Shown here: positions 22,096 to 45,900 of the stretch, piece by piece
Layout of the letters: each line of letters begins with the position of its first letter
Numbering within the stretch: the first letter of the stretch is position 1
Source of the DNA: Candidatus Dojkabacteria bacterium
Lineage (GTDB): Bacteria; Patescibacteriota; Dojkabacteria; JAHIVN01
Direction of reading: 5' to 3'
DNA: 46,969 nucleotides
Assembly (NCBI GenBank): GCA_028696515.1
Contig: JAQVGX010000001.1
Coordinates: forward strand, 1 to 46,969
Notes under the pieces: model-generated
Told to the model about the DNA's origin: nothing
What the model saw: the letters and a program-made list of their open reading frames with translations, nothing else
Databases searched by the model: none
Position numbers and translations under genes: made by a program

Positions 22096-23703
22096 TTATT
22101 TTCGAGAAGTATAAGTCAGGGCCACAAAGTCCTTGATGCGGCTTTTCGGGCTAATTATATTCATAGATACAAACAACATGCCTCCAAACAATACTAGATC
22201 TACACCAAAAGCAAACCACTCAGATTGCTGATCTTCTGAAGCAGTATCCGGCAACTCCCCAGTTTCAGGAAGAAATTCATCCAGCTCTATCTCACATGAG
22301 CTGTCGCAGCCGTCTCCGTCAATTACATTCCCATCATCGCACTCTTCTCCAGTGTCAAGGTTCCCATCACCACAAAATGGTTCTTCTTCCTCTTCTTGCA
22401 ACGTTACATTTTGCTTCGTCAAATAAATAGTATTTCCTCTATCTCCCGGGTTATCAGGTCCTGAATTATAGATATCACTTACAAGAATGTATGGCGCATC
22501 ATAACTACTGAGTTCAAGATCCATGTAAAGATACAACATCCCAATGTATACGGTCTCATTATAATTCAAGGCTAGGTCCTTGGGAGTAAAGAGCTCTCCA
22601 TCAAGATACGTATAATATACATCAACAATCTGATCATCCCCGGAATACTCGCTTCTTGCCCAAGCAATGTTAGGGACACCCCTCGTATCAAGCTCCATGT
22701 CACAATCCCAGTAAGTGAAAACATTTGTCTCTGTATCAACTGTAACAGCATTTGATTCATTCCATCCAGCACCTTTCTCTAGAAATCTTATTTCTTCCCC
22801 CGTTTCAGCTCCGTCATCGTCATGATACATCCATGCCAGATATTCGTTGCCCGATGTATCTATTCTTATTACTTGATAATCGTTCCATATATCAGAGTTT
22901 GTGCTCTCGGTAATCTGCTCAACTGCGCCGAACGTCACACCCGAACCACTCTCCGTGTCATAAGAATAGTAAACATTGATAAAAAAACTGCCTGTATCGA
23001 GTAGTGAGAATGCAACATATGGATTTCCGTCTTCATCCAAATCAATCGATCCATCATAGGGACGATAACCGTCACCTGAACTTAATACCTCAACTACCGC
23101 TCCCCAACTCCCTCCACTATATGTAGTATAATATACACCAGACCCTGAGAAGTCCCAGTCGTCCTCAAATAAAACATGTACCGTGTTATCGCTATCAATA
23201 TCAGCATCAAGTAGATTTGAAGCCAAATCAAAATCAGGCATAACTGCAGCGACTCCGAAGTCTGCACCACTATTTACTGCATAATTTACTCCGGTCGAGT
23301 AGTCATGCCAAAAAGCATATGTCTCAGAATCACCAACCAGTACCTGTGGCATATAGTAATCACCACCACTCTCAAATTGGCCAAATACTCCCACAGTAGG
23401 ATCTCCTTCGACTCCGGTTTCGTCTTCCCAAGAAGTCCCATTCCATGCTAGATAGGAAAAAAACAAAGCCGGAAAACTGCCCCCGGAATAAACAATATGG
23501 GGCTGACTGCTTGAATCCATATACATGCTGCAATAACCGTCATCATCATCAACCAGGTAATCCTGAGATACTCCGTCTACTGCATACCAGTCAGAACGGT
23601 CAACGACATAACTTTGGGCTTCCACACTTTTGTTCAAAAAAGATAAAAGTAATAAGGAGAGGCTAGAGATTAAAAGCAGTCGCTTCATAATGTTTATGGA
23701 CAT
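22096..23703 (-). CDS. Secreted beta-propeller-like surface protein with a Cys-rich repeat and LPETG sorting signal
   Basis: Signal peptide MKRLLLISSLSLLLLSFLNKSVEA. Repeated D..G.p.(V/I)A(W/F)...YY blades. One Myxococcus-type repeat, CGDGNLDTGEECDDGNVIDGDGCDSSC. LPETG at 22258-22272, followed by a hydrophobic helix and a basic tail. Confidence 0.8.
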   Translation of the reverse strand: MSINIMKRLLLISSLSLLLLSFLNKSVEAQSYVVDRSDWYAVDGVSQDYLVDDDDGYCSMYMDSSSQPHIVYSGGSFPALFFSYLAWNGTSWEDETGVEGDPTVGVFGQFESGGDYYMPQVLVGDSETYAFWHDYSTGVNYAVNSGADFGVAAVMPDFDLASNLLDADIDSDNTVHVLFEDDWDFSGSGVYYTTYSGGSWGAVVEVLSSGDGYRPYDGSIDLDEDGNPYVAFSLLDTGSFFINVYYSYDTESGSGVTFGAVEQITESTNSDIWNDYQVIRIDTSGNEYLAWMYHDDDGAETGEEIRFLEKGAGWNESNAVTVDTETNVFTYWDCDMELDTRGVPNIAWARSEYSGDDQIVDVYYTYLDGELFTPKDLALNYNETVYIGMLYLYMDLELSSYDAPYILVSDIYNSGPDNPGDRGNTIYLTKQNVTLQEEEEEPFCGDGNLDTGEECDDGNVIDGDGCDSSCEIELDEFLPETGELPDTASEDQQSEWFAFGVDLVLFGGMLFVSMNIISPKSRIKDFVALTYTSRK

Positions 23704-26598: not shown

Positions 26599-26636
26599 GT
26601 AGTCGAAAAAGCCTGTTGGATTTTGTTTTGTATACT

Positions 26637-29600
26637 ATGTTCAAATTGACAAAAAATACAACCATTCAACTCACGATAAAATTATTTATCCTATCCTCGA
26701 TACTAATCAGCTTTTCGTTCTCCCCGAGACCTGTGAATGCAGAACTGTACGAATGGGATACATCATTTAGTTCCGATGGCGTTGCAATCAATGCAAGTAC
26801 CGCCGGAGGAGATGGACATGAACAGATAAATGACATAGAAATTCAATCAGACGGAAAGTATATAGCCACTGGCTGGAGTGTTGGGATTCTAGATGCGTCT
26901 TCCAAAACTTATGCCGATTTAGCAGTTTTGAGATTCAACTCAAATGGTACACTTGACACTTCATTTGGAGGAACAGGATACGTAACAAGTAGGATTGGTG
27001 ATAATGAATATTCTATGAGTGCTGGGAACGCAATTAAGATACAAAATGATGGTAAATATATCGTAGTCGGAGCCAAATTCAGCGAAGATAGTATATTTGG
27101 TCATATGAATGTTGTCTTATGGAGATTCAATTCAGATGGAACACTTGATACTTCATTCAATTCTACAGGTTATAATATTTTCACAGATATAGAGGGTGTA
27201 GGTTTGGACTTAGAAATTGAGAACGATGGTCAGCCCGATATGTCATATATCGTTTCGGGAACTTCAGATGGATCAACTGCCATTTGGAAATTTGACACCA
27301 ACGGTGACATAGAACCAGGTTTTGGAAGTCTAGGTTCCCAAAAGGTCACAAATGGAGAAGGAAATTTCTCTTCCGACCTAGATTTTTTTGGATACTCAAT
27401 AACGTATTTGGGGGATCTTGATATCGACGGAGTAGATGACCTTGCTGTTGGAGAAAAAGAAGACAACGGGACAGGATCAGTACAAATAGTATTTATGAAC
27501 AGTGATGGAACTATCAAAAGCTCTTCAAAGATTGGTGAAGGTGAAGGAGGTTTTGGAGGATCATTAGATTCCAACGACGACTTTGGATTTTCTATCTCAG
27601 AAATAGGCGATCTTGATAACGATGGAGTCGTTGATATTGCAGTCGGTGCTCAGTATGACGATGACGAGAATGCGGATAGCGGTGCAATATGGGTAATATT
27701 TCTAAACTCGGATGGAACAGTAAAGGCAGAACAAAAGATTAGTGATACTGAGGGGAACTTTACTGGACAGCTTGATACCGCCGATTACTTTGGCTCTTCT
27801 ATCACAAATCTTGGAGATCTTGATGCAGATGGAGTACAAGATCTAGCAGTTGGAACTATGCGAGACGATGATGGAGGTACCAATCGTGGAGCTGTATGGA
27901 TTCTTTTCATGAACACCAATGGAACAGTAAAAGCTGAGCAGAAAATTAGCGATACCCAGGGTGGATTTCTAGGTACTATCTCAAACAATGATTCCTTTGG
28001 AAGAGTAGTAGAAAACATCGGCGATCTGGACGGAGATCTAATAACCGATATCGCTGTCGGAGCTCCATACGATGCAGGGAACAGTTCCGCCGAAGGGTCA
28101 ACTTGGATTCTATTTCTTAACACAGACGGTACAGTTAAGTCATATCAAGAGATTAATGATCTTCAAGGAGGATTTACTGGAGGACTAACAAGCGGAGATT
28201 TCTTTGGCATTTCTATTACTGATCTAGGAGATCTGGACACAGATGGAGTTCAAGATATAGCTGTCGGAGGCATTGGAGAAGATGGTAAGGTGGGAGGAGT
28301 TTGGATACTTTTTCTAAACTCAAATGGGACAGTTAAATCACATCAACTAATCAGCAACACAGCTGGAAGTTTCACCGGCGGTCTCGAACAATACGACTAC
28401 TTCGGAATATCACTTGAGAATATAGACGACTTTGATGGAGATGGTGTTCAGGATATCGCTATAGGGGCTACAGGTGGCGATTTTAATTCTGAAAGTGTGC
28501 CAAGCTGGAATGCCCGACGCGAAATACTGTGGATAATTTATCTAAATACTAATGGTACAGTAAAGGGCTTTGAGAAACTTCGAAATCCGGAAGGGCTTTT
28601 TCATGGATTTCTTGACGGACAGGACTACTTTGGCTCGGCAGTAACGAGTATAGGAGACATTGACTTAGATGGGTACGAAGATTTGGCTGTTGGTGCTCCT
28701 GGAGATGACGGTGGAGGGACAAATCAGGGAGCAGTTTGGATTCTTCATCTAAACGAGAATGCACAAGTCATAACTCACCAAAAAATCAGTGAAATAGAGG
28801 GAGGTTTTACGGGTGTACTGGATACTCTTGACTACTTCGGAACATCTGTTGCAAACATAGGAGATCTAGACAACGACGGTGTAATCGACTTGGCCGTCGG
28901 AGCCTATGGGGACGATGATGGCGGAAGCGGCCGAGGAGCAGTCTGGATTCTTTTTATGAATAGTGACAGCACAGTCAAATCAATACAGAAAATCAGTAAC
29001 ACAGCTGGCGGTTTTGGTGGAACCTTAGATAACGACGACTGGTTCGGATCCTCCGTTGCCCCATTGGGAGATCTTGATGGAGATGGTGTTGAGGATATTG
29101 CCGTTGGAGCAGAAAAAGATGACGATGACCACTCAGATGCAGGCGCAGTATGGATACTATTCCTTAATACAGACGGTACTGTAAAGAGTTACCAAAAAAT
29201 GAGCGACTCTACCGGCGGATTGATAATTGATCTTACAAGCACCAACTACTTTGGGGCATCAATAGCCAATATTGGTGATCTTGACGATGACGGAATTGTT
29301 GATATAGCAGTCGGAGCATACAATAGGACGGCTACTTCAAAAGGATCGCTTTCCATAATATTCCTAAATACCAATGGTACTGTAAAATCAGATTATGAAA
29401 TTACCTCAGGAACATTCCCGGTTACCATAGATAATTCAGACTGGTTCGGATACTCAGTCACCGATATTGGAGATGTGGATTCAGACGGAGTTCAGGATTT
29501 AGCTATCGGCATGCCAAGAGATGATGATGGAGGAACCGATCGTGGAGCTACTTGGATCACATTTATGAATACCAACGGAAGTGTAAAAACTGTGCAAAAA

Positions 29601-32600
29601 CTAAGTGATACTCAAGGACAGTTCGGCGCAACTTATGAAGATGGTGACTATTTTGGATCCGCTCTAGGAAGCTTGGCAGATCTTGATGGTAACGGGGAAA
29701 GAGAACTCGTGGTAGGTGTTGAACGTGAGAGTAATAATTACACCTATGGCGACAGAGGAGCTATCTATACTATTTCTATTGATGCCGATGGAACAGTTAA
29801 CAGAACTTCTTCTGAAGTTGGAGGCTACGGATACGCTATTTTCACTAGCGGAACATATGGAAATGATCTTTTAATTCAAAGTGATGGGAAATACGTTATA
29901 TGTGGAGTTGACTATTCAGGATCCTACGCTCGAGACTTTGCCCTTTGGCGTATAAACAGCGATGGAAGCTTGGACACAACGTTTAATGGGGCTGGATATG
30001 TTACACACACTCATGCTGCAGGAGGTGGACTAGAGGAATGCTCCACCTTACAAGTTCAATCTGATGGCAAATATATAGCAGCAGGGTATGCAAGCAGCCC
30101 TGATAACCATAGTACAAACTACGAAATGACTCTTTGGCGCTATAACACCAACGGATCTTTAGATACCACCTTTGACAGTGATGGATATGCCGTATATTCA
30201 AATGCTGCAGGCGGATACGGACATGATTGGGGGAAGAGCTTAGAAATTGAAAACGATGGCCAGCCTACTATGAAATATGTAGTCGGAGGTTACAGCTGGA
30301 ATCCTGACCTTGATCCTGATATAGCTGTCTGGAGGTTAAATGAAAACGGTTCTCTGGACACAACTTTTCATAATCAAGGATATATAACTCTGGGAAATTC
30401 GGCTGGCGGAAATGATTCAGATGTTATTACTGATTTGGAGATTCAATCTGATGGGAAGTATATAATGGGCGGTTACTCTACTGGAACTGACGGCACATTC
30501 GATGCTGCAATTTGGAGATTGCAGGAACAAGGGGCAACAGGAGGAACAGGGATAGTCGTTTTCGAGGATAAAGAGCCTTATACAAGTTTATCTAAAACCA
30601 AAAGTTTATCGTCTTCTAATGTATTGGGGGATAATCAAGAGAACTTATCCGATAACTCTGAAGAGATAAAACACAAGGTCCAGCCATTGAAAAATAAGGT
30701 TAATTCTACTATTTCAAACATAATTTATACAACAAATACTTTAAACAAAACTGAGGCCCTCTCCTCAAAGATTTTATTAATTATAGGAATAATATCAATA
30801 AGTGGAACTGCAATAATTTGGATAAAATTTAAAAGATTATCAACTCCAAAATATCGAGATTTTAATCCTTTCGGTTTATACAAAAAAGAAACAGTCAACT
30901 ATAAACATTTACTTAGGAAACTTGCCTTTTCAGCTAATTCAAATCGAAAGCTCTTTATCGTACTCATTACACTTATCTTTACGATTGTAAACCTTTCGGT
31001 CCTACCTTTCGCAAAGAACACAAATGCTGCCTGGGATACAACATTCGATTCAGACGGATTCCTCTGGTATGATGAAGGTTACGGGTGGGATATTGGATAT
31101 GATTTGGAAATACTTCCTAGCGGAAAAATCTTGGTAGCAGGTTTTGTTACAAATTCTAGCGGGAATTGGGATATGGCTTTATGGCAATATAATAGTGATG
31201 GAACTCTTGACACGGCCAATTTCAACACCCCAAATGGATATGTTACCCATGACAGTGCAGCCGGTGGGGGTGATAGAGATAGTAGTTATTCATTGGCAGT
31301 TCAAACAGATGGGAAGATACTAGTAACAGGTTATAGTCTAAATTCAGCCTCAGACGGAGACCTTGTGATATGGAGATACAACAGTGACGGAACGATGGAT
31401 GATACTTTCGGTGACGGCAGTTGCAATAACGGGGTTGGTGTAGGATCCGATATGGGATGTGTGGTTCACCACAATGCAGCTGGTGGCGACGGGTATGATT
31501 CAGCTACTACAGTACTAGTCAATGATGCTGGTAAGATAATAGCTGTTGGATCAAGTGAAAACTCTCCAAGTACCTACGATTATAGTCTCGTAGTTTGGCA
31601 GTACAATAGTGATGGAACTATGGATGATACCTTTGGTGACGGCAGTTGCAATAATGGAGTTGGTGTTGGATCAGATATGGGATGTGTAGTTTTTCCAGGG
31701 CTAACAGCAGATGCAGATAACTGGAGCGACGGAGCTGTATTACAATCAGATGGAAAAATTGTAGCTGTCGGTTCTGCAGACAATGATACAAACTATTATG
31801 ATATGGCAATATGGAGATTCAATACTGACGGGACATTGGATGATACTTTCGGAGATGGGACTTGTAGTAATGGAGCAGGTATTAGTGGTGATATGGGTTG
31901 CGCTATTCACCATAATGCTGCAGGTGGCAATGATGACGACTTTGGAATTGCTGTAGCGATTGATGGTAATAATAATATTGTTGCAGCTGGATACAGTTAC
32001 AGCTCAACAAATGGTACAGATCTAGCTGTTTGGAGGTACAATTCTGACGGTGAACTGGATACCTCATTCAGCTCAGATGGATATACCTCTCATAATAGTG
32101 CAGCTGGAGGATCCTGGTGGGATTCTGGAGAAGATCTTGTTATCCAGAGCGACAACAAAATTGTTATCTCCGGGCAAAGTGATGACTCTGACGGTAATAC
32201 CGATATGACTATCTGGAGATATCAGACCGATGGAACACTAGACCCTTACTTCGGAGACGGAACATGCGTAAATGGAGTCAATTCAGGACACGGCTGTGTC
32301 AACCACAATGGTGATGAGGCTATTGCTGGCTTTAATGATGACTATGGTGGAGGAATAGATATAGTCGCTGATGGTACTTTTATCGTAAGTGGACAGGCAC
32401 AAGAAACTAACGTACAAAACAGAGATATGGCTATGTGGAAATTCATCCAAAGAAGCTACCAGATACTAAATCTAGATTCGTCTCTCAATGCAACCGACAG
32501 TTCAGGAAATAATGTTGAGGACGGATCAGCATATGGGTTAGAGGGGTCTTATACCATAAACATCACTGATACTTCGGGTAACTATATCGGCGAAGTATTG

Positions 32601-35435
32601 ACTGACTTCTCAGCCGATCTTGATTGGGGAAGCGTTATGGGTGATATCGATATGACTGAAAGGAAGTCCGTTATAGATAATCTCAGCTCAGCAGATGGAA
32701 CTGCAGCTACACATACACTTTACGTTCCAAAGGGAACGAGTGATACATCAGTGGGCATTTGTCCAAGTGCCACAGACCTCGCAAGTGTCAACGAGACATG
32801 TCCCGGATTGGAAATAAAAACAGCTGCATTTCCAGACGCATCAGTTGTCACACTTGGAGGCAACGAATACTGGAAAATAACCGGCCTCACAAGCACTGGC
32901 GGATTCAGTACTACATTAACACTTGATCCTACAACTAATACATTTGATGATGAATTTGATATCATACCTAATGCTACTTGCTCTCTTCGAGAAGCTGTAC
33001 AGGCTGTAAATATTCAAGCAGCATTTGGCGGATGTGATGCTCCAAATGATCAAAATGCAGTTATTCTTGAAGCAGGGACATATCAGTTAGATATTCTTGG
33101 CAGAGATGAGGACAATAACACCTCCGGGGATTTAGACATACTGCATGATATATCAGTTATAGGAGATGGAGAAACGCAAACAGTCATTAAGGGGAACCCC
33201 GACGGAGCAGAAGAGAGTACAAGAGATAGAGTATTCCAGCTTCACGATACTTATTCAGCCAATTTCGCTTACCTCACAATAAGGGACGGCTATCAAGAAA
33301 TCCCTGATTCTGCATTATATTCACTTCAAGGGGCTGGTATTCGTGCCGGAGCTGGTGTCTCTTTGGATCTAAATCACATTACTGTTAGAAACAACATACT
33401 ATATGATGATGTAAATAGCGAGTGGGGAGAGGGTGCAGGTGTATGTGTTGACGGTTCAAATATAGATCTCAGCATTAATGACTCAAATTTAATTTATAAT
33501 ACTATTGATGCCTTTGAAGGGCATGGAAGTGGAGGTGGAGGCCTTGCAGTTCTGGGAACAGCCGGAACTCATGACGTTTATATCAACAATTCAACTTTTA
33601 ACAACAATGAAGTAATCGTAACCGACGAATGGGAGGCTTATGGAGCCGGAATCAACATCGATGAGGCAGATGTCGAGATCTACAATAGTGAGATCAATGA
33701 TAATTACCTTCAAACTTACGCATCAACATATGGAGCAGGATTAAACATCTGGTGGACTTACTCACAACCGGCAATAATTGAAGATACCTCAATATCCGGG
33801 AATACAGCTGAAATCATAGCTCCTTGGGACATTTTGATCTGGGGAGTTGGCTTTAATTCTTTCAATGCAGTAAATATTAACAGATGTGATATAAGCAGAA
33901 ATGTTCTAACTGGAACATCATTTGGAGACTATCTTGAAATTTGGGCTGGCGGAGCGTACGTAACAGACGATTCTATCGTTACAAATTCCACAATAAGTAA
34001 CAATCTCATTGATGTTAGGGCTTCAGAAAACAACAGTGAACTAATATATGGAGCAGGGATAACACTCGACGGAGATACTATAGAGTTAACGAATAACACT
34101 ATAAGTGGGAATGAGATTAATGTTACATACGATACCATCGATACCGACCCCTATGTAACTCCATATATCATGGGAGCTGGTGGTATGAACATCTCAAACG
34201 ATGCTAGGCTTTCATTCAACACTATAGCTGACAACTCTATTTTCCCTTCTACTTATAATTACTTTGATAAATTTGGTAAGATTGGCAGCGGATATTTTGA
34301 ATGGGGTTATTCTTCTCTCAAATCCAATGTCTTCGACAATGTTCAAGACAACAATTCTGATTGTTTTGACGAAAACTATTATTGGAATGGATATGTAAGA
34401 CTAACTTCAGAAGGCTATAATTTCAATTCTGACGGCTCCTGCGTAGGTCCGGATATACAACCTAGCGATGACATAAGCACTGATCCTCTTATACAACCAC
34501 TTGACGATAATGGCGGAGGATTAGAAACCCATGCCCTGCTCCAGGCGAGTCCTCCGGTAGACTATTCATCGAACTGCTATGACGCCTTTGGTAGATTGGT
34601 AACCAACGATGAGCGTTTGGAAGATCGTCCAGTTGATGGTGATGAAAATGGTTCAGCCGTATGTGACAGTGGAGCGTATGAATACAACCCCGAGCAATCG
34701 GTACCTTATTGCGGAGATGGAAACCTTGATGATGGAGAAGAATGTGACGACGGCAATAATCAGGATGGAGACGGGTGCAGTGCTATATGTGAAATTGAAT
34801 CTCAGGAACCATACTGCGGTGACGGAAATGTAGATCAAGATGAACAATGCGATGACGGTAATACAACAAGCGGAGATGGATGTTCATCCAACTGTGAATT
34901 CGAGGAGGGAATATTCCACAACTGTGATGAGCACCTTGACTTCACTTTTTCTTACAACTTTGGTAATCCTGCTTGGTGGGACTCTGGGAATGCACCTCCG
35001 GAAGACATCGACTGCACCTGGGAACAGACACAGGGAACTGAAACAATAATCTTTGATCCGGAGAATGAAACTACTGAAGCCTTGAGCGATAGTGCCTATC
35101 CTCTTCAAGTTTCTACTGAAATTGAATTTGAGAATACTCCAGCAAATCGAAATGAAACTTATGGTGTCAGGGCAGTTTGTGAAGGATGGGAAAGTCCTGA
35201 GGAAACTTTTCTGGCAGGAGAAAAAATTGACTGCTGTGAAGATAGCATCATACCTTTCTTGCCCGAAACAGGAGAATTACCTAATACATATAATTTTGAC
35301 CTGAGCACCAGATACTGGATTATGCTGGGAATCAATCTCATACTTCTGGGATTTTCTATGAGGATTTTATTTGATTATTTTGCAAGATTTAAATATGTTA
35401 ATCTTATCAAAATAACAAATTCAAACAGATCTTAA
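26637..35435 (+). CDS. Giant (~2930 aa) multi-domain surface protein: delta-60 repeats, 12 FG-GAP repeats, internal TM hairpin, delta-60 repeats, CSLREA/parallel beta-helix, 2 Cys-rich repeats, LPETG anchor
   Basis: Signal peptide MFKLTK...SFSPRPVNA|E. LDTSF..TGY / SDGKYI delta-60 periodicity. FG-GAP consensus D.FG.S...(I/L)GDLD.DG..D(L/I)AVGA 12 times. CSLREA at 32979-32996. CGDGN..(D/Q).E(E/Q)CDDGN...GDGCS..C twice. LPETG at 35259-35273, then a TM helix and a basic tail. Confidence 0.9.
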   Translation: MFKLTKNTTIQLTIKLFILSSILISFSFSPRPVNAELYEWDTSFSSDGVAINASTAGGDGHEQINDIEIQSDGKYIATGWSVGILDASSKTYADLAVLRFNSNGTLDTSFGGTGYVTSRIGDNEYSMSAGNAIKIQNDGKYIVVGAKFSEDSIFGHMNVVLWRFNSDGTLDTSFNSTGYNIFTDIEGVGLDLEIENDGQPDMSYIVSGTSDGSTAIWKFDTNGDIEPGFGSLGSQKVTNGEGNFSSDLDFFGYSITYLGDLDIDGVDDLAVGEKEDNGTGSVQIVFMNSDGTIKSSSKIGEGEGGFGGSLDSNDDFGFSISEIGDLDNDGVVDIAVGAQYDDDENADSGAIWVIFLNSDGTVKAEQKISDTEGNFTGQLDTADYFGSSITNLGDLDADGVQDLAVGTMRDDDGGTNRGAVWILFMNTNGTVKAEQKISDTQGGFLGTISNNDSFGRVVENIGDLDGDLITDIAVGAPYDAGNSSAEGSTWILFLNTDGTVKSYQEINDLQGGFTGGLTSGDFFGISITDLGDLDTDGVQDIAVGGIGEDGKVGGVWILFLNSNGTVKSHQLISNTAGSFTGGLEQYDYFGISLENIDDFDGDGVQDIAIGATGGDFNSESVPSWNARREILWIIYLNTNGTVKGFEKLRNPEGLFHGFLDGQDYFGSAVTSIGDIDLDGYEDLAVGAPGDDGGGTNQGAVWILHLNENAQVITHQKISEIEGGFTGVLDTLDYFGTSVANIGDLDNDGVIDLAVGAYGDDDGGSGRGAVWILFMNSDSTVKSIQKISNTAGGFGGTLDNDDWFGSSVAPLGDLDGDGVEDIAVGAEKDDDDHSDAGAVWILFLNTDGTVKSYQKMSDSTGGLIIDLTSTNYFGASIANIGDLDDDGIVDIAVGAYNRTATSKGSLSIIFLNTNGTVKSDYEITSGTFPVTIDNSDWFGYSVTDIGDVDSDGVQDLAIGMPRDDDGGTDRGATWITFMNTNGSVKTVQKLSDTQGQFGATYEDGDYFGSALGSLADLDGNGERELVVGVERESNNYTYGDRGAIYTISIDADGTVNRTSSEVGGYGYAIFTSGTYGNDLLIQSDGKYVICGVDYSGSYARDFALWRINSDGSLDTTFNGAGYVTHTHAAGGGLEECSTLQVQSDGKYIAAGYASSPDNHSTNYEMTLWRYNTNGSLDTTFDSDGYAVYSNAAGGYGHDWGKSLEIENDGQPTMKYVVGGYSWNPDLDPDIAVWRLNENGSLDTTFHNQGYITLGNSAGGNDSDVITDLEIQSDGKYIMGGYSTGTDGTFDAAIWRLQEQGATGGTGIVVFEDKEPYTSLSKTKSLSSSNVLGDNQENLSDNSEEIKHKVQPLKNKVNSTISNIIYTTNTLNKTEALSSKILLIIGIISISGTAIIWIKFKRLSTPKYRDFNPFGLYKKETVNYKHLLRKLAFSANSNRKLFIVLITLIFTIVNLSVLPFAKNTNAAWDTTFDSDGFLWYDEGYGWDIGYDLEILPSGKILVAGFVTNSSGNWDMALWQYNSDGTLDTANFNTPNGYVTHDSAAGGGDRDSSYSLAVQTDGKILVTGYSLNSASDGDLVIWRYNSDGTMDDTFGDGSCNNGVGVGSDMGCVVHHNAAGGDGYDSATTVLVNDAGKIIAVGSSENSPSTYDYSLVVWQYNSDGTMDDTFGDGSCNNGVGVGSDMGCVVFPGLTADADNWSDGAVLQSDGKIVAVGSADNDTNYYDMAIWRFNTDGTLDDTFGDGTCSNGAGISGDMGCAIHHNAAGGNDDDFGIAVAIDGNNNIVAAGYSYSSTNGTDLAVWRYNSDGELDTSFSSDGYTSHNSAAGGSWWDSGEDLVIQSDNKIVISGQSDDSDGNTDMTIWRYQTDGTLDPYFGDGTCVNGVNSGHGCVNHNGDEAIAGFNDDYGGGIDIVADGTFIVSGQAQETNVQNRDMAMWKFIQRSYQILNLDSSLNATDSSGNNVEDGSAYGLEGSYTINITDTSGNYIGEVLTDFSADLDWGSVMGDIDMTERKSVIDNLSSADGTAATHTLYVPKGTSDTSVGICPSATDLASVNETCPGLEIKTAAFPDASVVTLGGNEYWKITGLTSTGGFSTTLTLDPTTNTFDDEFDIIPNATCSLREAVQAVNIQAAFGGCDAPNDQNAVILEAGTYQLDILGRDEDNNTSGDLDILHDISVIGDGETQTVIKGNPDGAEESTRDRVFQLHDTYSANFAYLTIRDGYQEIPDSALYSLQGAGIRAGAGVSLDLNHITVRNNILYDDVNSEWGEGAGVCVDGSNIDLSINDSNLIYNTIDAFEGHGSGGGGLAVLGTAGTHDVYINNSTFNNNEVIVTDEWEAYGAGINIDEADVEIYNSEINDNYLQTYASTYGAGLNIWWTYSQPAIIEDTSISGNTAEIIAPWDILIWGVGFNSFNAVNINRCDISRNVLTGTSFGDYLEIWAGGAYVTDDSIVTNSTISNNLIDVRASENNSELIYGAGITLDGDTIELTNNTISGNEINVTYDTIDTDPYVTPYIMGAGGMNISNDARLSFNTIADNSIFPSTYNYFDKFGKIGSGYFEWGYSSLKSNVFDNVQDNNSDCFDENYYWNGYVRLTSEGYNFNSDGSCVGPDIQPSDDISTDPLIQPLDDNGGGLETHALLQASPPVDYSSNCYDAFGRLVTNDERLEDRPVDGDENGSAVCDSGAYEYNPEQSVPYCGDGNLDDGEECDDGNNQDGDGCSAICEIESQEPYCGDGNVDQDEQCDDGNTTSGDGCSSNCEFEEGIFHNCDEHLDFTFSYNFGNPAWWDSGNAPPEDIDCTWEQTQGTETIIFDPENETTEALSDSAYPLQVSTEIEFENTPANRNETYGVRAVCEGWESPEETFLAGEKIDCCEDSIIPFLPETGELPNTYNFDLSTRYWIMLGINLILLGFSMRILFDYFARFKYVNLIKITNSNRS
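27381..29720 (+). repeat. Array of 12 FG-GAP-type coding repeats (period ~62-70 aa)
   Basis: Runs from DFFGYSITYLGDLDIDGVDDLAVG to DYFGSALGSLADLDGNGERELVVG. Each unit is followed by AVWI(L/I)F(L/M)N..GTVK-type strands. Confidence 0.85.
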
Positions 35436-35460: not shown

Positions 35461-36831
35461 ATGAGAAAAAAGTTGGGAAAATTCGCAATATTAACGTCTG
35501 GGTTAGTACTTTTTTTGCAAATCTTTATGATTGCAGAAAACTTTACAGTTGAAGCTGCCACTATCACAGTAACCACAACTGCTGACGAATTCGGGCCAGG
35601 AAATGATTGTTCATTGAGAGAAGCTGTTCAGGCTGTGAATTCTGGGAGCCCGTATGGAGGATGCCCTGCTGGAGACGGATCAAACGACACCATCACACTA
35701 CCCGCGGGAACATTTACTCTGACGCTTGTTGGTAAAGATGAAGATTTAAATGCTACTGGAGATATTGATATAAGTGCAGATGTAACTATCATAGGAGCTG
35801 GAGCTAGCCAGACTATCATTAGCGGAAATGCAGGAGGGACAGCTGATGCTGACAAAGATAGGGTTTTCCATATAGCGGATAACGTAAGCGTGGAATTTTC
35901 AGATGTCACAATTCAAGATGGATACTATGAGAAGAGAAACGACCCGTTTAACTATACTGGATGGATTCATGGAGGAGGTATACTCTCGGGAGATGGATCT
36001 TCACTAAGAATCATAGATAGCGTAGTGCAAAATAATACAATACTCCGCGAAGACTCTCAAGCTTATGGCGGTGGAATATCTATTAGTGACGAAGATACAA
36101 CACTCCACATTGAAAACTCAAGTATTATCAATAATGAGCTTATCTTAGAAGATACAGACAAGGATGGATCTATGGGAGGTAGAGCTGCGGGTATAAGTGT
36201 CGAAGACATTTACGAAGGTATTGGCGATGATAATTCGGCTGGAGTAGATATTACAATCATTGATTCCGAAATAAGTGATAATACAGCTACTTGCGATATA
36301 GAACCTCCTGCTCTCTCCAGCTGGGCGTTCATAGAGGGCGTAGGATTGGAAGTGGATTATGTAAGAAGTTTCAGCATGGCAGACTCTCATATTAACAATA
36401 ATACAGCATATTTAAGAGATGGATATGTTAGTGCCTGGGGACCTGGGTTATTAATCTGGAGACTTGTGCAGGGAGGAACTATTCCTCAAATTTATGACTC
36501 CACAATAAACGGAAATACCTCCACAACTATTTCAGAAACTGACGTACTTGGATACGGAGCTGGTATTCTAAGTTATATTCCAATGGAAATAACAAGGACA
36601 CAGATAAATGGAAACGGACAAAATGTTACTTCTGGATGGGAATATGTTGAAAATTGGGGAGGAGGAATATTTATTGATGGCGGATCTGTTTCACAAACCT
36701 CGATAATTCGTCAGTGCACAATAAGCAATAACTATATCGATGTATCTATCGATACTGATTCTTCAGCAATGATTTTTGGGGCTGGCATATACCTAGATGG
36801 AGGAACCGTCGAAATTTCAACAACACGATAA
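35461..36831 (+). CDS. CSLREA/beta-helix surface protein, N-terminal segment (same gene as 36906-38018, interrupted by a frameshift)
   Basis: Signal peptide MRKKLGKFAILTSGLVLFLQIFMIAENFTVEA. CSLREA at 35608-35625. Collinear with aa ~2110-2500 of the giant ORF. It stops at ...VEISTTR* where the paralogue reads ...IELTNNTISGNE. Confidence 0.75.
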   Translation: MRKKLGKFAILTSGLVLFLQIFMIAENFTVEAATITVTTTADEFGPGNDCSLREAVQAVNSGSPYGGCPAGDGSNDTITLPAGTFTLTLVGKDEDLNATGDIDISADVTIIGAGASQTIISGNAGGTADADKDRVFHIADNVSVEFSDVTIQDGYYEKRNDPFNYTGWIHGGGILSGDGSSLRIIDSVVQNNTILREDSQAYGGGISISDEDTTLHIENSSIINNELILEDTDKDGSMGGRAAGISVEDIYEGIGDDNSAGVDITIIDSEISDNTATCDIEPPALSSWAFIEGVGLEVDYVRSFSMADSHINNNTAYLRDGYVSAWGPGLLIWRLVQGGTIPQIYDSTINGNTSTTISETDVLGYGAGILSYIPMEITRTQINGNGQNVTSGWEYVENWGGGIFIDGGSVSQTSIIRQCTISNNYIDVSIDTDSSAMIFGAGIYLDGGTVEISTTR

Positions 36832-36905
36832 GCGGAAATTGGATAGACTTCAACTGGAATACTCATGACCCCTTCCGTTGGGAGGAGATATTTGGAGGCG
36901 GTATT

Positions 36906-38018
36906 ATGAATTGGGGAGCCGAAGTTGAGCTCTCCTTTAATACTATAGCCAATAACTCTGTACCGGAAACCTACTTTTTAATTCCTCCCGAAACAAATCC
37001 CCAAAAACTTGGAAGCGGATACTTCGAATGGGGAACAACAGTTATGAAATCAAATATATTTGACAATGACCAAGACGGAAATCAAAACTTTTTTGACGAA
37101 TCAGTTTACTGGGATGTTCCTCCATCTCCAAATACAACCTCACTAGGATACAATATCGATAGCGATAATTCTCTAATTAGCGTGATAACACCAGGTACAG
37201 AAGACCTGTATGATGATCCCGAGATTGATCCTTTGGCAGATAATGGAGGCACATTGTATACCCATGCACTTCCATTGACTAGTCCAGCCTTAGATTATTC
37301 TACAGACTGTACAGATGCTGGAGGTACTCCTGTCACAACAGATGAACGCCTTATCTCCCGTCCAATAGATGGTGATGAAAATGGTTCAGCCGTGTGTGAC
37401 AGCGGAGCATATGAATACAACCCCGAGCAATCGGTACCTTATTGCGGAGATGGAAACCTTGACGATGGAGAAGAATGTGACGACGGCAATAATCAGGATG
37501 GAGATGGGTGCAGTGCAACTTGTGAATTTGAAGAAGGAATTTTTCACAACTGTAACGAACACCTTGATTTTACATTTGATTATAACTTTGGTGATCCCTC
37601 TTGGTGGGATAGCGGCAATGCTCCTCCTGAAGATATAGACTGTATCTGGGAACAGACACAGGGGACTCAAACAATTCTATTCGATCCTGAAGCTGAAACT
37701 ATCACCGCCGGTACAGACAGCTCATATCCTCTCAGCATTTCTACTTCAATTGAATTTGAGAACACACCAACAAACAGGAATGAGACTTATGGGACACGAG
37801 CTGTATGCGGAACATGGATCAGCCCTGAAGAAACTTTCCTTGCTTCGGAGAAAATAGATTGCTGTGAGGACAGTATCATCCCGTTCTTACCCAAAACAGG
37901 AGAATTACCGAGTACATACAATCTTGATCTAAGTACCAGATACTGGGTCATGCTTGGGATCAATCTTATTCTTCTTGGTTTTTCATCCAAGATTTTAATT
38001 GACTATTTCAAGAAATAG
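36906..38018 (+). CDS. CSLREA/beta-helix surface protein, C-terminal segment with Cys-rich repeat and LPKTG anchor
   Basis: This frame is open and homologous upstream of the listed Met (NNTISGNWIDFNWN...). It has one CGDGNLDDGEECDDGNNQDGDGCS repeat. LPKTG at 37887-37901, then a TM helix and KK tail. Confidence 0.75.
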   Translation: MNWGAEVELSFNTIANNSVPETYFLIPPETNPQKLGSGYFEWGTTVMKSNIFDNDQDGNQNFFDESVYWDVPPSPNTTSLGYNIDSDNSLISVITPGTEDLYDDPEIDPLADNGGTLYTHALPLTSPALDYSTDCTDAGGTPVTTDERLISRPIDGDENGSAVCDSGAYEYNPEQSVPYCGDGNLDDGEECDDGNNQDGDGCSATCEFEEGIFHNCNEHLDFTFDYNFGDPSWWDSGNAPPEDIDCIWEQTQGTQTILFDPEAETITAGTDSSYPLSISTSIEFENTPTNRNETYGTRAVCGTWISPEETFLASEKIDCCEDSIIPFLPKTGELPSTYNLDLSTRYWVMLGINLILLGFSSKILIDYFKK

Positions 38019-39523: not shown

Positions 39524-42500
39524 ATGCTTGAACCTCAAATCGATCAAACAAACTATAGTCCTGAAAGAAAGCTCAAAATCGAAAATTTGGCAATATTTGT
39601 AGCACTGAGCGTCATCATTATTATTCTTTTTTTGTTACTCCGTGAGCCGGCAACCAATTTTGTTGAATCGATTGTAGAAAACGAACCATCGAAAGAAGAT
39701 CAACCTGAATCAGCAGTTAGCAGTTCAAAAACCATTGCTGAATACATAGGTGAGCTAAAAGAAGGAAATGCTATTACACTCACACCTACTATAAATGTAC
39801 TTGGAAATGTCATCAACGAAGAGGTAACAATTAACGACCTACCCGACACCGGTGAAGATGACCCTTGGGTAAATGTTATTGGCGACACGATGACAGGAGA
39901 TCTGACGATAACTGGGGGAGCTAACCTAATTCTTACTGATTCCGAAGACCTTGTTTTCAGCAACGTTTCACTCAAATCCTCACTTTCCAGACAAAACAGC
40001 GGAGCTTTCTTTGTAGGAACATTTGATGAATATGTCAATAGTGACAGCACCAACGTACAAGATGTGATGGATGATTTGGATGAAGCCATTGGCAGCCTTC
40101 AAAATAGAGTCGTTTATTGGAACGAAGCTTATAGCTGGGGAGACCACAGTATTGTTGGATATTTGACAGAAGAATCCGAAGAAACAGATCCTGTTTGGAC
40201 AGAAGCTGAGTCAAGCTACTTCAACATATCTGAAAACGAGTTAATTACTGGGTGGCCAAACTTTGCCGGGGGTCAGAGCGGTATAAGAGCACCTTTTAGA
40301 GTTGACAGTACATTTCTTGTGACAAATCTTAACGCTGATCTTCTCGACGGCTATCATGCCTCTGACTTTATGGGAGAAGGCGTAGATCTTTGGGTTGACG
40401 AGACAGGAGATACTATGTCTGGAATCTTAAATATGGGAGGTTACAGGATCGAAAATATAGCGGTACCAAACTCAAATGATGACGCAATTGATTTCGGCTC
40501 TGCTGAATCAAACTATATAAACGATGGAGCAGGAGAAATCAACGCTGTTGGAGATTTTAACTTTGCCGCAACAACTAATATCACAAATCTAAGCGCTGAT
40601 TATCTAGACAGCCAGGACAGCAGTTACTATCGCAATGTATCAAACATTAACGCCGGAACCTTAGGAAGTGCTTACTTCAGTGCATACTCAGATCTAAATG
40701 CCGAAGGATACGTGCCCGCTTCATCTACTACGATATGGACCAATACTAACGACGGGGCTGGCAGCGGACTTGACGCTGATCTGCTTGACGCTCAGACAGG
40801 CACCTACTATACAAACGCTTCCAATATAAACTCGGGCACATTGGGCACTGCTTATTATAGTGCATATGCTGATCTTACGGCCGAAAACTACCTGAATAAT
40901 GATGCCGGGACAGATCTACTGACACAAACCCAGTTAGATGGAAGATACATCAATAACACCGGAGATACTATGACTACCGCCGGATTGCCATTTTCCGGTA
41001 TTACAACTGATATTTATACTCCGAGCGGTGAAGCGCTTACTCTAAGTGCTCCTGGCGCACAAGATATAAATTTATACACAGGTTCAGGAGTAATAGGCAT
41101 AGGAACGACAACCTCTCTCGTTGAAGTTTCAAATGTATCGACTGCCTATTCTGATCATAAAGATCTCCTTATCAGATCAACCGGAACCAACCAGGCAACA
41201 TATTTTCGTGTTGCCCCAAATGGTACCCCGCCCGATTCAATTATATGGTCAACTGTGCAGGTCTTTGCTACAGACTGGTCAGCTGACCAGTCAAATGTTG
41301 AAGCCGTTGAGATGAGATTTAATCGGGATGCAGACGGCGCTCCAGGAAATCAATCAATTTTTCAAATTAACACCTATGCAGGAGGAACAGGAACCCTGCA
41401 TCCCCTTGCAATAACAGTAGACGATGAAGCATATAAAGGAATCTTCATCGATACCGGAGCAAATGTTGGTATTGGTTCAACTTCCCCTGCGCAAGAACTT
41501 GACGTAGAAGGAGACATCCAGCTCGATGCAAACGAGTCTGCAACTACAAATGGTTTATGTCATTCTGGAGCCAACTCGGATACAACTTTCACAGATCGCA
41601 ATATAGTAGCATGTTCATCAACCCCTGGTGATATAGCTGAATGGTATGACACAAAGGATGCCGAAGCCGGAGACATTGTATATACAACAGGTGAAAAAAT
41701 TACCTATATATCACCGGCTGTCAACGCCGAAACCGGAGAAGTTCTAAATCAGAATGAAAAGTTAACTGCAAGTATACTGGCAAAAAGCAACCGTCCTTAC
41801 CAAGCAAATATCTTGGGAGTAGTATCAACCTCTCCTTACGAATCTTTCGGCAAGGCTATCAATAAATATTCTTCAAACCCCAATCCTATAGCACTTACAG
41901 GACGCGTCCCAGTGAAAGTTGTCACTTACAACGGAGCTATAAAGCCGGGTGACCCTATCACAGCAAGCAGTATAGCTGGGGTAGGTATGAAAAGCACTAA
42001 ACCAGGGCATATCATTGGAATAGCATTAGACCATTATGACAGTATCAACCCTTATAAAGTTGGTAAAATACTGGTTTCCATCAACCTCAGCTGGTATGAG
42101 CCTGAGAGTTATCTCAAAAAGGTAAACGAAACAATTCAGGCATATGATATGTTGAGTACGCAGGGACAAATTGATATATTACCGGATCTCAATATAACCG
42201 ACACTTTAACAGCCAAAAATGCTTCAATCTTGTCGATTCAAGTGAAAGATATAACTGTTCAGAATAATCTTGAAGTTTCAGGAGTACTAACATCGAGGTC
42301 GATAAAAGCAGATACAATAGAATCTGCATTCTCCAAAAGTATCATTATCAAGCTGTCAGACCACTTGGGTAATACAGCATTCGAAGTACAAAACGATCAG
42401 AGCGAAAAAGTATTCAGCATTGATAGTAACGGAAAGATTTATATACTATCAGATTCTTCCAATACTTCTGTAGGATCAACAGTTTTATCTCCTGGAAATG

Positions 42501-42682
42501 AAGAGATAAGAGTAGAGACTAAGGCAGTAACATCTGACTCAAAGATATTTATTAGCCCGATTTCCACTTCTTCGATTCCGCCGAACGTATGGATTAAAGA
42601 AAAGGGAATTGGATTTTTCATCATCCGGCAAGAGGAAGTATCTGATCAAAACCTTGTGGTTGATTGGTGGGTCATCAATTAG
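39524..42682 (+). CDS. Membrane-anchored tail-fibre-like protein, paralogue 1 (1052 aa)
   Basis: N-terminal TM LAIFVALSVIIIILFLLL. LPDTGE at 39839-39853. GDTM(T/S)G three times, NADLLDGYHASDF, GANVGIGSTSP. C-terminal DIAEWY...AGDIV...ILGVVSTSP...LTGRVPVKV domain. Ends DWWVIN. Confidence 0.85.
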   Translation: MLEPQIDQTNYSPERKLKIENLAIFVALSVIIIILFLLLREPATNFVESIVENEPSKEDQPESAVSSSKTIAEYIGELKEGNAITLTPTINVLGNVINEEVTINDLPDTGEDDPWVNVIGDTMTGDLTITGGANLILTDSEDLVFSNVSLKSSLSRQNSGAFFVGTFDEYVNSDSTNVQDVMDDLDEAIGSLQNRVVYWNEAYSWGDHSIVGYLTEESEETDPVWTEAESSYFNISENELITGWPNFAGGQSGIRAPFRVDSTFLVTNLNADLLDGYHASDFMGEGVDLWVDETGDTMSGILNMGGYRIENIAVPNSNDDAIDFGSAESNYINDGAGEINAVGDFNFAATTNITNLSADYLDSQDSSYYRNVSNINAGTLGSAYFSAYSDLNAEGYVPASSTTIWTNTNDGAGSGLDADLLDAQTGTYYTNASNINSGTLGTAYYSAYADLTAENYLNNDAGTDLLTQTQLDGRYINNTGDTMTTAGLPFSGITTDIYTPSGEALTLSAPGAQDINLYTGSGVIGIGTTTSLVEVSNVSTAYSDHKDLLIRSTGTNQATYFRVAPNGTPPDSIIWSTVQVFATDWSADQSNVEAVEMRFNRDADGAPGNQSIFQINTYAGGTGTLHPLAITVDDEAYKGIFIDTGANVGIGSTSPAQELDVEGDIQLDANESATTNGLCHSGANSDTTFTDRNIVACSSTPGDIAEWYDTKDAEAGDIVYTTGEKITYISPAVNAETGEVLNQNEKLTASILAKSNRPYQANILGVVSTSPYESFGKAINKYSSNPNPIALTGRVPVKVVTYNGAIKPGDPITASSIAGVGMKSTKPGHIIGIALDHYDSINPYKVGKILVSINLSWYEPESYLKKVNETIQAYDMLSTQGQIDILPDLNITDTLTAKNASILSIQVKDITVQNNLEVSGVLTSRSIKADTIESAFSKSIIIKLSDHLGNTAFEVQNDQSEKVFSIDSNGKIYILSDSSNTSVGSTVLSPGNEEIRVETKAVTSDSKIFISPISTSSIPPNVWIKEKGIGFFIIRQEEVSDQNLVVDWWVIN

Positions 42683-42911: not shown

Positions 42912-42951
42912 AATTAATAAATAAGTGAAGAAAACACCTTTTACTGCCTCT

Positions 42952-45900
42952 ATGAAGGAACAGAGTACAAACAATAAGTTGATTATTATAGCAGGACTGG
43001 TTGTTCTCGTTCTCATACTAGCATTACTTCTAAAACAACCAATTACGAGCCTCGTTAATCCATCAGCGCAGGACGATTCTTCATCTGATATCGAGGGGAC
43101 TCAAAGCAGAACAGTTACAGAGTATATCACCGAACTTAAAGAGGGCAAACCTTCTACCTTTACTCCAAAAATAGAAGTTCTCGGAGACGTTATTTATGAA
43201 GATTACTCTACAACCACTCTCCCAGAAACAGGTGAAACTACCATAGATGACATTTGGGTAAATACAACTGGTGATACTATGACTGGAAACCTCTCCATCA
43301 CCAAAGACGGTACTCTTGTTCTGCCCAGAATTGAATCTTTGATTTTTAATTCATCTACCTTAGGGGATACTAACTCAGCCTCAGACAGTGGTGCATTTCT
43401 GATAGGTGCTTTTGATGAATTTACAAACAGTGACAACACAAATGTTCAAGCCATTCTTGACGATCTTGATAAGGCTATTTCAGATCTGGAATCGTCTATA
43501 CCTTCTATAACTGAATCCGATCCTATTTTTTCAGCCAGTCCAGCTGCCTCAATTACGAATACATACATTTCTCATTGGAATGCAGCTTATTCTTGGGGTG
43601 ACCATGCCCTGATAGGTTACCTCACCTCAGAGTCTGATCCTGTTTGGACAGCAGCTGAACCCAGCTACTTTAATAGAACCCAGAATGAAACCGTAACCGG
43701 AATTCCTAGTTTCAATGGAGGTCTTAGCGGAAGTACAGCACCTTTTACAGTTGACAGCACATATATGATTTCAAATCTAAATGCCGACCTTCTTGATGGC
43801 TATCATGCTGCCGATTTTATGGGCGGAGGTATTGATCTGTGGATTGATGAAACAGGTGATACTATGCTTGGAGATTTGATACTAAGCGGAGCTGATATTA
43901 ACATTGGAACTAACAATTTAATAACCGGATCTAACTCTCTTTCTTCTTCTGAGTTAGATATTCTTGATTCTGGAATCAACTTTTCAGAGCTTAGCGGCAC
44001 ACTTGGCGATACTCAGATATCAGTAGGAGCCGTGGACTTGGATACGACTGAAGTAGCTGGAATACTTCCGATAGCAAACGGTGGCACCAATGCATCCTCA
44101 TATACGACAAATGAATTCCTCTGGTACAACGGAACAAGAATAGTATCAAGCGGATATGATCAAAACGATTTTATGCCAGCTGTTACCGACAATTGGGTAG
44201 ATGAGGCGGGAGATACTATGACTGGAACACTTATCTTCTCTGGGGTTGCTACTGATATAACAACTGCAGGCGGAGAGGCAATTACTATATCTGCACCTGG
44301 AGCTGGTCACATAATTTTGGATGCAGGAACTGGAAATGTAGGGATTGGTACCACCAATCCTTTAGCAACACTTGATCTTCAGGGGGATGGAATAATCCGA
44401 GGAGATCTTGTAATACGTGAAACGACACCGGATACTGAAGCTTGGGACTCTATCAGTACGATAAATGCTCCACTAGCAAGAGACAGTCATTCAGCAGTCT
44501 GGACCGGCAGCGAAATGATTATCTGGGGTGGGAGATATAGTTCTGGAGCTTATAATACGGGAGGTATTTACGATCCAGAAACGGACTCCTGGACAGCAAC
44601 AACTACCACAGCAGCTCCTACCGCAAGACAAGTACATGCGAGCATATGGTCAGGTAGTAAGATGATTATACTTGGAGGTCTTAGTGGAGGCGGATCTTGT
44701 CTAAGTTCAGGTGGTATCTATGATCCTGGCACAGACAGTTGGACAGCAACATCAACTACTGGTGCCCCAACTGATATATCAGACAAAACTACCATATGGA
44801 CTGGCAACAAATTCATAGTCTGGGGAGGAGTTTGCTCAGATCTCAATACTGGATCTATCTATGATCCTATCTTGGATACATGGACTTCAATTTCGACATC
44901 AGGGGCACCTACAGCCAGATCAGGACATACCGTAGTCTGGACCGGAAAGAAAATGATAGTTTGGGGAGGCATATCTGGAATCAACTATTTAAATAGTGGC
45001 GGAATGTACGATCCGGAAACAGATACCTGGACAACTATTACAACGACCGGAGCTCCATCAGCAAGAGCAGTCCCTGAACTAGTCTGGACAGGAGACAAAG
45101 TAATAGTCTTTGATGGGTTCAACTACAACTTTAATCCCTCTTCTCCTTCCTGGGGTGGTATCTATGATCCTGAAACCAATAGTTGGCTCTCAGTATCCTT
45201 TGGATCAGGAAGAGAAAGTGGTGCAGTTGTCTGGACAGGAAATAGAATGACCAGATGGGGAGGCATGACAGCAACTCCGGCAACAGTTTCCGGCACAGGT
45301 GTCATTTACGATATAGAAACAAACTCACTCGTATCCATGCTTGATGTAGGAGATCCATCAGCAAGATATGCACATACAGCGATTTGGACCGGAAACCAGA
45401 TCATCATATGGGGAGGAAACACATCATATGGTTATTTAAACGATGGAGGTATATATACATCACCTACAGAGAAAGGTGGAAAGCTTTATGTACAAGGAGA
45501 GGCTACCATCGATGACAATCTTTTTGTAAGTAAAACAATAACTGCTGGGGGAATTCACAGTGAGGGCGGAGCAGATATAGCAGAGTACTACCCCACAATT
45601 GATCCATCTATCGAAGCAGGAGATGTAGTCTCAATCAGCGATAATACTCAGATAGAAAAATCAAATACATTATACGGGTCAAAATTAATTGGGGTCGTAT
45701 CGACTAACCCGGGTGTTACCTTATCATCAAAAGAGACAAACCCTTCATCAAAAGAGTATCGTCTTGTAGCACTTGCCGGAAGAGTGCCAGTAAAATTTAC
45801 TACAGAGAACGGCACAGTAAAAGGAGGAGATTATCTAGTTTCTTCTTCTACGCCGGGAACAGCTATGAGTGCCTGCGGACCCAAATACTGCATGAGCGGA

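Follow-up and report, generated by a model that had tools for sequence, protein, structure and literature searches.

Whether one very long bacterial gene makes a single surface protein or two differently anchored ones is the question raised by a 2939-codon open reading frame (ORF), taken from an ORF list with its translation, at positions 26616-35435 of the forward strand in contig JAQVGX010000001.1 of Candidatus Dojkabacteria bacterium. The stretch of this contig that we analysed, hereafter the window, is 46,969 bp long with 39.9% G+C. An earlier note, made from the letters of the window, had read the ORF as two surface-protein precursors fused in frame through an internal membrane hairpin. 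We found the giant gene to be a genuine and selectively maintained single ORF, whose parts follow the order signal peptide, ectodomain 1, stop-transfer transmembrane segment (TM1), basic loop, signal-peptide-like transmembrane segment (TM2), ectodomain 2 and LPETG sorting signal. Very probably, this one gene encodes two large extracellular domains joined by a membrane anchor, a basic inner loop and a signal-peptide-like segment. The overall reading that we favour, with modest confidence, combines a fusion, a hairpin topology and a cut into a membrane-anchored and a sortase-anchored product.

The junction inside the giant ORF

The database entry for the protein, P0001, begins at the ATG at 26637 (MFKLTKN...), which is the better start and gives 2932 aa through 35435. 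An exact-sequence look-up of the form starting from TTG at 26616 found no entry; the database holds the ATG-start form. The protein opens with a Sec-type signal peptide MFKLTKNTTIQLTIKLFILSSILISFSFSPRPVNA (26637-26741), recognized from the translation, a hydropathy peak and the start of P0001, and its predicted cleavage site, inferred from the -3/-1 rule, is VNA|E, reading VNA|ELYEWDTSFSSDG. A Kyte-Doolittle scan with a 19-residue window over all 2939 codons gave just four peaks above 1.6, which correspond to the N-terminal signal peptide (1.83), TM1 (2.21), TM2 (2.52) and the C-terminal segment after LPETG (1.89).

The two middle peaks form the junction. TM1, ILLIIGIISISGTAIIWI (30771-30824), is predicted to be an outside-to-inside stop-transfer anchor, and it is followed by a putative cytoplasmic loop of 42 aa, KFKRLSTPKYRDFNPFGLYKKETVNYKHLLRKLAFSANSNRK (30825-30950), with a net charge of about +10 by translation and composition. 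This loop holds 12 lysine plus arginine (K+R) and 2 aspartate plus glutamate (D+E) residues, whereas the whole protein has 4.4% K+R and 15.6% D+E. TM2, LFIVLITLIFTIVNLSVLPFA (30951-31013), a candidate inside-to-outside internal signal or re-initiation segment, lies inside the polypeptide and not at an N-terminus (aa 1439-1459 of 2932). Behind it comes the c-region KNTNA (31014-31028), with a signal peptidase I site TNA|A predicted by the -3/-1 rule between 31028 and 31029, so that the junction reads KNTNA|AWDTTFDSDG with AWD beginning at 31029. The fully tryptic peptide of the window protein that crosses the junction begins NTNAAWDTTFDSDG, and the semi-tryptic peptide predicted at the N-terminus after a cut is AWDTTFDSDGFLWYDEGYGWDIGYDLEILPSGK, with the start AWDTTFDSDG; in the orthologue P0002, described below, the corresponding start would be AWDPAFDGDG.

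Hydrophobicity sums on the Hessa scale, which are approximate and not position-weighted, were about +0.3 for TM1, about -0.6 for TM2 and +2.8 for the N-terminal signal peptide. Both internal segments are thus more hydrophobic than the signal peptide, and their sums near 0 kcal/mol are compatible with membrane insertion. We also modelled a 530-aa fragment across the junction with AlphaFold2 (AF2) from a three-sequence alignment. Over the hairpin the predicted local distance difference test score (pLDDT) stayed below 60, and at this low confidence the model placed long helices on TM1 and TM2 and coil on VLPFAKNTNA.

No in-frame stop, ATG, GTG or TTG occurs in the 42-codon loop, and ATT, ATA, ATC and CTG are also absent from it. 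Start-type codons are likewise missing from the entire interval between 30825 and 31028, which covers the loop, TM2 and the c-region. By chance, 42 codons of such composition would stay open with a probability of about 0.03-0.06 and would contain about one start-type codon. With no start-type codon lying between TM1 and the predicted cut, TM2 can only act as an internal signal, if it acts as a signal at all. In these respects the earlier note agreed with the translation: the positions of TM1, loop, TM2 and AWDTTFDSDG, the end of the N-terminal signal peptide and the lack of a stop, ATG, GTG or TTG in 30825-30950 were all recovered as described. Its nucleotide coordinates also held, but its residue count ran from TTG 26616 and is replaced here by one from ATG 26637.

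Conservation of the junction in two homologues

The orthologue P0002 (2919 aa), found in metagenome-assembled genomes of Patescibacteria, is 71% identical to the window protein over 100% coverage and lies in the same synteny, in the order alanyl-tRNA synthetase, prephenate dehydratase and giant gene. The hairpins of the two proteins align without a gap, with a loop of 42 aa in both, and the P0002 gene is nucleotide-identical throughout in four separately assembled contigs. Synonymous sites between P0002 and the window gene are saturated (proportion of synonymous differences, pS, about 0.8), which makes the ratio of nonsynonymous to synonymous rates (dN/dS) of the loop uninformative, and we used the proportion of nonsynonymous differences (pN) and amino-acid identity instead. 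TM2 with the c-region was 65% identical, TM1 50% and the loop 40%, and the N-terminal signal peptide had the lowest identity, 29%; pN was 0.19 at TM2 versus 0.48 at the N-terminal signal peptide. TM2 is the best conserved part of the junction, with IT..FT.VNLS..PF invariant across the window protein, P0002 and a third homologue, P0121.

P0121 (L005 1170-6338, in contig JBDRHZ010000025.1 of assembly GCA_043816305.1) is a diverged paralogue in the genome of P0002 and is 54% identical to the window protein over the second half. Its start in the database was called too far downstream, and an upstream ATG yields a normal signal peptide, MYIHYKYKQRLKKILFPFFIIPLFFLLLPSKCVNA|APYQ. Ectodomain 1 of P0121 consists of a single hybrid delta-60 blade and then the stalk, and the loss of about 1200 aa of this domain looks like a repeat-mediated in-frame deletion. 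The hairpin is nevertheless there: TM1 reads FIIILVLIPLFLITLFLVF and TM2 LTVFITIIFTLVNLSIIPFS, the 43-aa loop between them has 14 K+R but lacks acidic residues, and the c-region and blade start read RNVDA|AWDPTFDSDG. TM1 is therefore present in both homologues, and the loops of the three proteins measure 42, 42 and 43 aa, with 12-14 K+R each (29-33% K+R, compared to 4.4-4.9% per protein).

The presence of the hairpin in P0121 means that it is older than that duplication. By comparison of the sequences, it has outlasted a big in-frame loss from ectodomain 1, and also a divergence of the second half by about 46% of its amino acids. An open, gap-free hairpin in both P0002 and P0121 also shows that assembly error is not the cause of the junction. 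The continuity of the ORF, which the earlier note had flagged as something that reads or orthologues might overturn, was thus borne out, and P0002 and P0121 each encode the junction in one gene and not two. No counterpart of P0121 was seen in the window genome, where a 984-aa ORF (15824-18778) is directly followed by an AAA/Lon-lid gene at 18867.

Topology, origin and processing

Ectodomain 1 follows a signal peptide, and ectodomain 2 is Cys-rich and carries LPETG; both should hence lie outside the cell, and the chain must cross the membrane an even number of times from one to the other. The two spans present, around an extremely basic loop, satisfy this need and fit the positive-inside rule. 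We therefore hold a topology of outside, TM1, inside, TM2, outside to be very likely. As to how such a gene came about, the architecture points to a probable origin in an old in-frame fusion, in which two surface-protein precursors encoded side by side were joined.

In the mechanism that we propose, the N-terminal signal peptide would carry ectodomain 1 across the membrane via Sec until TM1 halts translocation. The strongly basic 42-aa loop would be retained in the cytoplasm under the positive-inside rule, and TM2, as an internal signal, would resume export with ectodomain 2. Sortase would process the C-terminal LPETG signal, and signal peptidase I would cut TNA|A after TM2. This would leave an integrin-like, acidic product of about 1430 aa, which the TM1-loop-TM2 hairpin keeps in the membrane, and a second product of about 1410 aa that is fixed to the cell wall.

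Whether signal peptidase I cuts after TM2 is the step on which the number of products depends. The n-region before the TM2 core is positively charged and ends in SNRK, ANRK and LAKY in the three homologues, and the predicted sites are TNA|A, AKA|A and VDA|A, with T/A, A/A and V/A at -3/-1, giving the consensus (T/A/V)-x-A|AWD. Ala at -1 and +1 and Pro at -8 are invariant, and neighbouring positions vary. The h-region of TM2 comprises 18 residues before the Pro, or 21 with PFA; that of the protein's own N-terminal signal peptide has 13, and the ordinary signal peptides in the window have 15-18. In the HMMER output, the N-terminal signal peptides of two stand-alone delta-60 proteins, P0245 and P0247, line up with TM2, and their predicted cuts fall 1-4 residues before the repeat start (L/W)D..F..DG. 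This alignment bears out the likeness of TM2 to the N-terminal signal peptide of delta-60 proteins, which had been noticed earlier within the window protein itself. A basic n-region, an h-region of borderline length (18-21 residues), a Pro break, small residues at -3/-1 and an adjoining delta-60 repeat together make a cut at TNA|A probable, and from these sequence features we lean towards cleavage by signal peptidase I at this site.

Several observations weigh against parts of this reading. Neither the search of 1.84 billion proteins nor the two contig scans described below yielded a split two-gene relative, which leaves the fusion origin as an inference from architecture; the two-precursor layout described in the earlier note is supported by that architecture. 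Neither a sortase nor a signal peptidase gene was found among the ORFs of the 47-kb window. The conservation of the AxA-like site comes from three sequences of two genomes only and carries little statistical weight. The remaining points favour the rival reading in which the topology is the same and TM2 is an uncut, permanent helix, so that one chain of about 2900 aa displays both ectodomains, tied by the hairpin, with ectodomain 2 also fixed to the wall via LPETG. TM2 is the most hydrophobic segment (Kyte-Doolittle 2.52, Hessa about -0.6) and is longer than the N-terminal h-region (13 residues, +2.8), resembling a permanent signal anchor, and its 18-21 residues are at or above the usual limit for cleaved signals, whose h-regions typically have about 7-18. 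It is conserved above its surroundings and far above the N-terminal signal peptide (65% vs 29%), and its invariant polar residues T, T, N and S form a face typical of helix packing, which suggests, as far as the sequence can tell, a lasting role in the membrane through helix-helix contact. The low-confidence AF2 model gives long helices for both hydrophobic segments, as a permanent hairpin would predict.

A permanent TM2 would not, however, account for the small -3/-1 residues and the +1 Ala, which are kept in three homologues amid varying neighbours, nor for a Pro break with a 5-residue c-region. In addition, h-regions of 15-18 residues are normal among the signal peptides of this genome, as seen in the window. 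Sortase substrates usually have a free, processed N-terminus, which ectodomain 2 would lack if TM2 stayed uncut. The conservation of TM2 is itself still compatible with cleavage, because the cut leaves TM2 in the ectodomain 1 product. Having set these points side by side, we consider an uncut TM2 a real but rather doubtful possibility.

Other explanations dispense with either the single gene or the hairpin. Two ordinary adjacent genes could appear as one if a stop or frameshift in the linker were lost by sequencing or assembly error; the loop is A/T-rich, and the contig is not free of indels, whether genuine or artefacts, as a 1-nt frameshift in the tandem paralogue downstream (35461-38018) shows. 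This is largely refuted, and the chance left to it is marginal, since the orthologue P0002 comes from another population and has the same gapless open 42-codon loop, with four assemblies identical over the gene, the loop of the paralogue P0121 is open as well, and the window loop holds no start codon for a second gene. Alternatively, the second half could also, or mainly, be made from an internal translation start in the loop, with TM2 as an ordinary N-terminal signal peptide. P0002 does have an in-frame ATG in its loop (HMSFGTRRK...), and P0121 has two (RMIKKMASNKR), but these Met positions differ between the homologues, and the window loop and TM2 contain no ATG, GTG, TTG or near-cognate. 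On this sequence evidence, the window genome cannot translate the second half separately because its loop and TM2 offer no start codon, and we take internal initiation overall to be very unlikely. No Shine-Dalgarno-like motif was present upstream of 20 gene starts examined in the window; ribosome-binding sites thus cannot judge internal or coupled initiation, and the lack of such a motif in the loop is no counter-argument to it. Finally, the hydrophobic stretches might not span the membrane at all, being for example buried structural elements of one continuous secreted chain, as the low AF2 confidence in the hairpin region could allow. This is most improbable for segments that each have 18-21 uncharged residues and Kyte-Doolittle values above 2.2 beside a loop that is extremely basic while the protein around it is very acidic, that sit outside any folded domain, with a disordered stalk before them and a propeller beginning after them, and whose pattern is kept in three homologues.

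Distribution of the junction

A hairpin profile was built from the three sequences (window protein, P0002 and P0121) and used in an exhaustive hmmsearch of 1.84 billion representative proteins. It matched the P0002 cluster alone over the full length, and the other 51 matches covered the delta-60 part only. Degenerate-pattern scans of GTDB genomes and JGI metagenomes led only to the same two paralogous loci of one other genome, those of P0002 and P0121; a further scan match, L009, spans 18 residues and belongs to the delta-60 part only. Among 289 retrieved homologues, an internal pair of hydrophobic segments with a basic loop was seen in just the three family members and in the unrelated P0017. 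The hairpin arrangement is thus conserved but very restricted in its distribution. We found no published description of such an architecture in searches of the literature on sortase substrates of Patescibacteria or on bacterial internal signal peptides.

P0017, a 4686-aa FG-GAP protein encoded on a 6.2-Mb contig, appears to have an independent in-frame junction of an anchor and a signal peptide at about aa 165-235. There, a PEP-CTERM-like segment VPEPTLGTLLTAGLLGLLVIARVRRS stands directly before the signal-peptide-like SRVANGLLVFIGALALSQPADA|VF, and FG-GAP repeats follow.

Ectodomains and sorting signal

Ectodomain 1 (26742-30536), delimited by Pfam DUF5122 and FG-GAP, NCBIfam TIGR02608 and a motif map, is strongly acidic, has 2 Cys and is composed of delta-60 blades, about 11-14 FG-GAP blades and further delta-60 blades, in this order. 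A low-complexity stalk rich in Ser, Asn and Lys (30537-30770; 50% identity to the P0002 orthologue) leads from it to TM1, and in the AF2 model the stalk has a pLDDT of about 23 with no secondary structure, as expected of a disordered region. Ectodomain 2 (31029-35258), delimited by Pfam, NCBIfam and a Cys map, contains 31 Cys. It is made up of a delta-60 propeller, an Ig-like region, a CSLREA and choice-of-anchor Q beta-helix region, Cys-rich DUF4215/myxo_disulf repeats and a C-terminal domain, and its first blades were predicted by AF2 with a pLDDT of 85-94. The delta-60 models matched repeats in both halves of the protein (TIGR02608, 486 bits in 12 stretches; PF17164, 309 bits in 10 stretches), whereas choice-of-anchor Q (NF041518, 46 bits against a cut-off of 25) and CSLREA (TIGR04214, 26.3 bits against a cut-off of 25) were found in the second half only.

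The C-terminal sorting signal (35259-35435), identified from translation and hydropathy and kept in P0002 and P0121, consists of LPETG (35259-35273), a 14-residue spacer, the hydrophobic segment WIMLGINLILLGFSMRILFDYF (35316-35381), the basic tail ARFKYVNLIKITNSNRS and the stop. No curated LPXTG-anchor hidden Markov model matched the last 78 aa in an NCBIfam scan with E up to 1. The C-terminal end of one model for sortase-dependent surface proteins, NF053819, matched the TM1 region below threshold (E = 0.019). Six residues before TM1, LNKTE (30738-30752) might be the remnant of an LPXTG motif, but P0002 and P0121 do not share it, and we did not rely on a decayed sorting signal at TM1.

Neighboring genes

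Directly downstream of the giant gene, a tandem partial paralogue of its 3' third (35461-38018, forward strand) has its own signal peptide, a CSLREA motif and an end of the form LPKTG-TM-KK. It is 63% identical to aa 2488-2917 of the giant protein and has no counterpart at the orthologous locus L001. Near 36815-36830 it is split by a 1-nt frameshift into ORFs 35461-36831 and 36906-38018, which makes it either a pseudogene or the site of an assembly indel. Two further ORFs on the forward strand, 39524-42682 (1052 aa) and 42925-46545 (1206 aa), have hydrophobic N-termini resembling uncleaved signal anchors and end similarly (...DWWVIN and ...DWWIIN), and the 1206-aa ORF contains Kelch repeats. 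Together with the giant gene, the paralogue fragment and a DUF4215 protein on the reverse strand (22096-23703), they form a cluster of surface-protein genes.

Significance and comparison with known systems

Patescibacteria are thought to live attached to host cells, and this lifestyle makes giant surface proteins prime candidates for host contact. Whether a giant ORF gives one chain or several products affects both its annotation and its modelling. If the internal cut takes place, the gene would be a clear case of a bacterial secreted polyprotein resolved by signal peptidase I and sortase, with a fixed 1:1 output of a membrane-anchored module and a wall-anchored, adhesin-like module. If TM2 remains uncut, it would be an unusual two-ectodomain membrane protein of modest interest. 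For gene calling and topology prediction, an internal junction of anchor and signal peptide need not mean a missed stop codon.

The closest parallels in layout come from viruses. In the bunyavirus Gn-Gc, alphavirus p62-6K-E1 and flavivirus prM-E precursors, host signal peptidase cleaves behind the second hydrophobic segment, so that one ORF yields two membrane-associated products. The giant protein shares with them the succession of signal peptide, ectodomain, stop-transfer segment, short cytoplasmic segment, internal signal or transmembrane segment and a second ectodomain with its own C-terminal anchor. Unlike those precursors, which are viral and handled in the eukaryotic endoplasmic reticulum, it is encoded by a cellular bacterial gene and known from its sequence layout, and its second product would be sortase-anchored; no homology to the viral proteins was found, and none was looked for. 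We give about an even chance to the idea that one gene here supplies two differently anchored surface proteins through a conserved internal signal peptide, as a cellular, monoderm counterpart of viral glycoprotein-precursor processing.

All domains of the protein are standard and are shared with canonical LPXTG, delta-60, FG-GAP and choice-of-anchor Q proteins, and its second half alone is an ordinary precursor from signal peptide to LPETG. Ordinary LPXTG or delta-60 proteins, however, have one N-terminal signal peptide and one C-terminal anchor. In bacteria, a polyprotein-like strategy had been called rare by the earlier note, and this needs qualifying since an internal cut is known for LtaS: the signal peptidase I SpsB cuts this polytopic protein between its membrane and extracellular domains (PMC12260438). 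LtaS, also from a monoderm, resembles the present case in being cut just outside its last transmembrane segment, which frees a large extracellular domain (PMC12260438); here the cut is a predicted one. A preprint on giant bacterial genes considers another route, in which giant proteins might be cleaved by C39 and S8 protease domains and not at internal signal peptides. LtaS differs in having five N-terminal transmembrane segments and no first ectodomain, N-terminal cleaved signal peptide or LPXTG, and its cleavage inactivates the enzyme and does not make two functional surface proteins.

The cytochrome b-c1 precursor FbcH of Bradyrhizobium japonicum reportedly yields two membrane proteins when signal peptidase I cuts it at an internal signal peptide, as described by Thony-Meyer et al. 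in PNAS in 1991. A cut at the start of the second moiety, in the product of one gene, resembles the cleavage proposed here, but the first moiety of FbcH is the polytopic cytochrome b and not an exported ectodomain, the product belongs to a respiratory complex and is not adhesin-like, and there is no sortase signal. The combination of a cleaved N-terminal signal, a first ectodomain, a hairpin and a second ectodomain anchored by sortase occurs in none of these systems, whether the viral precursors, LtaS or FbcH.

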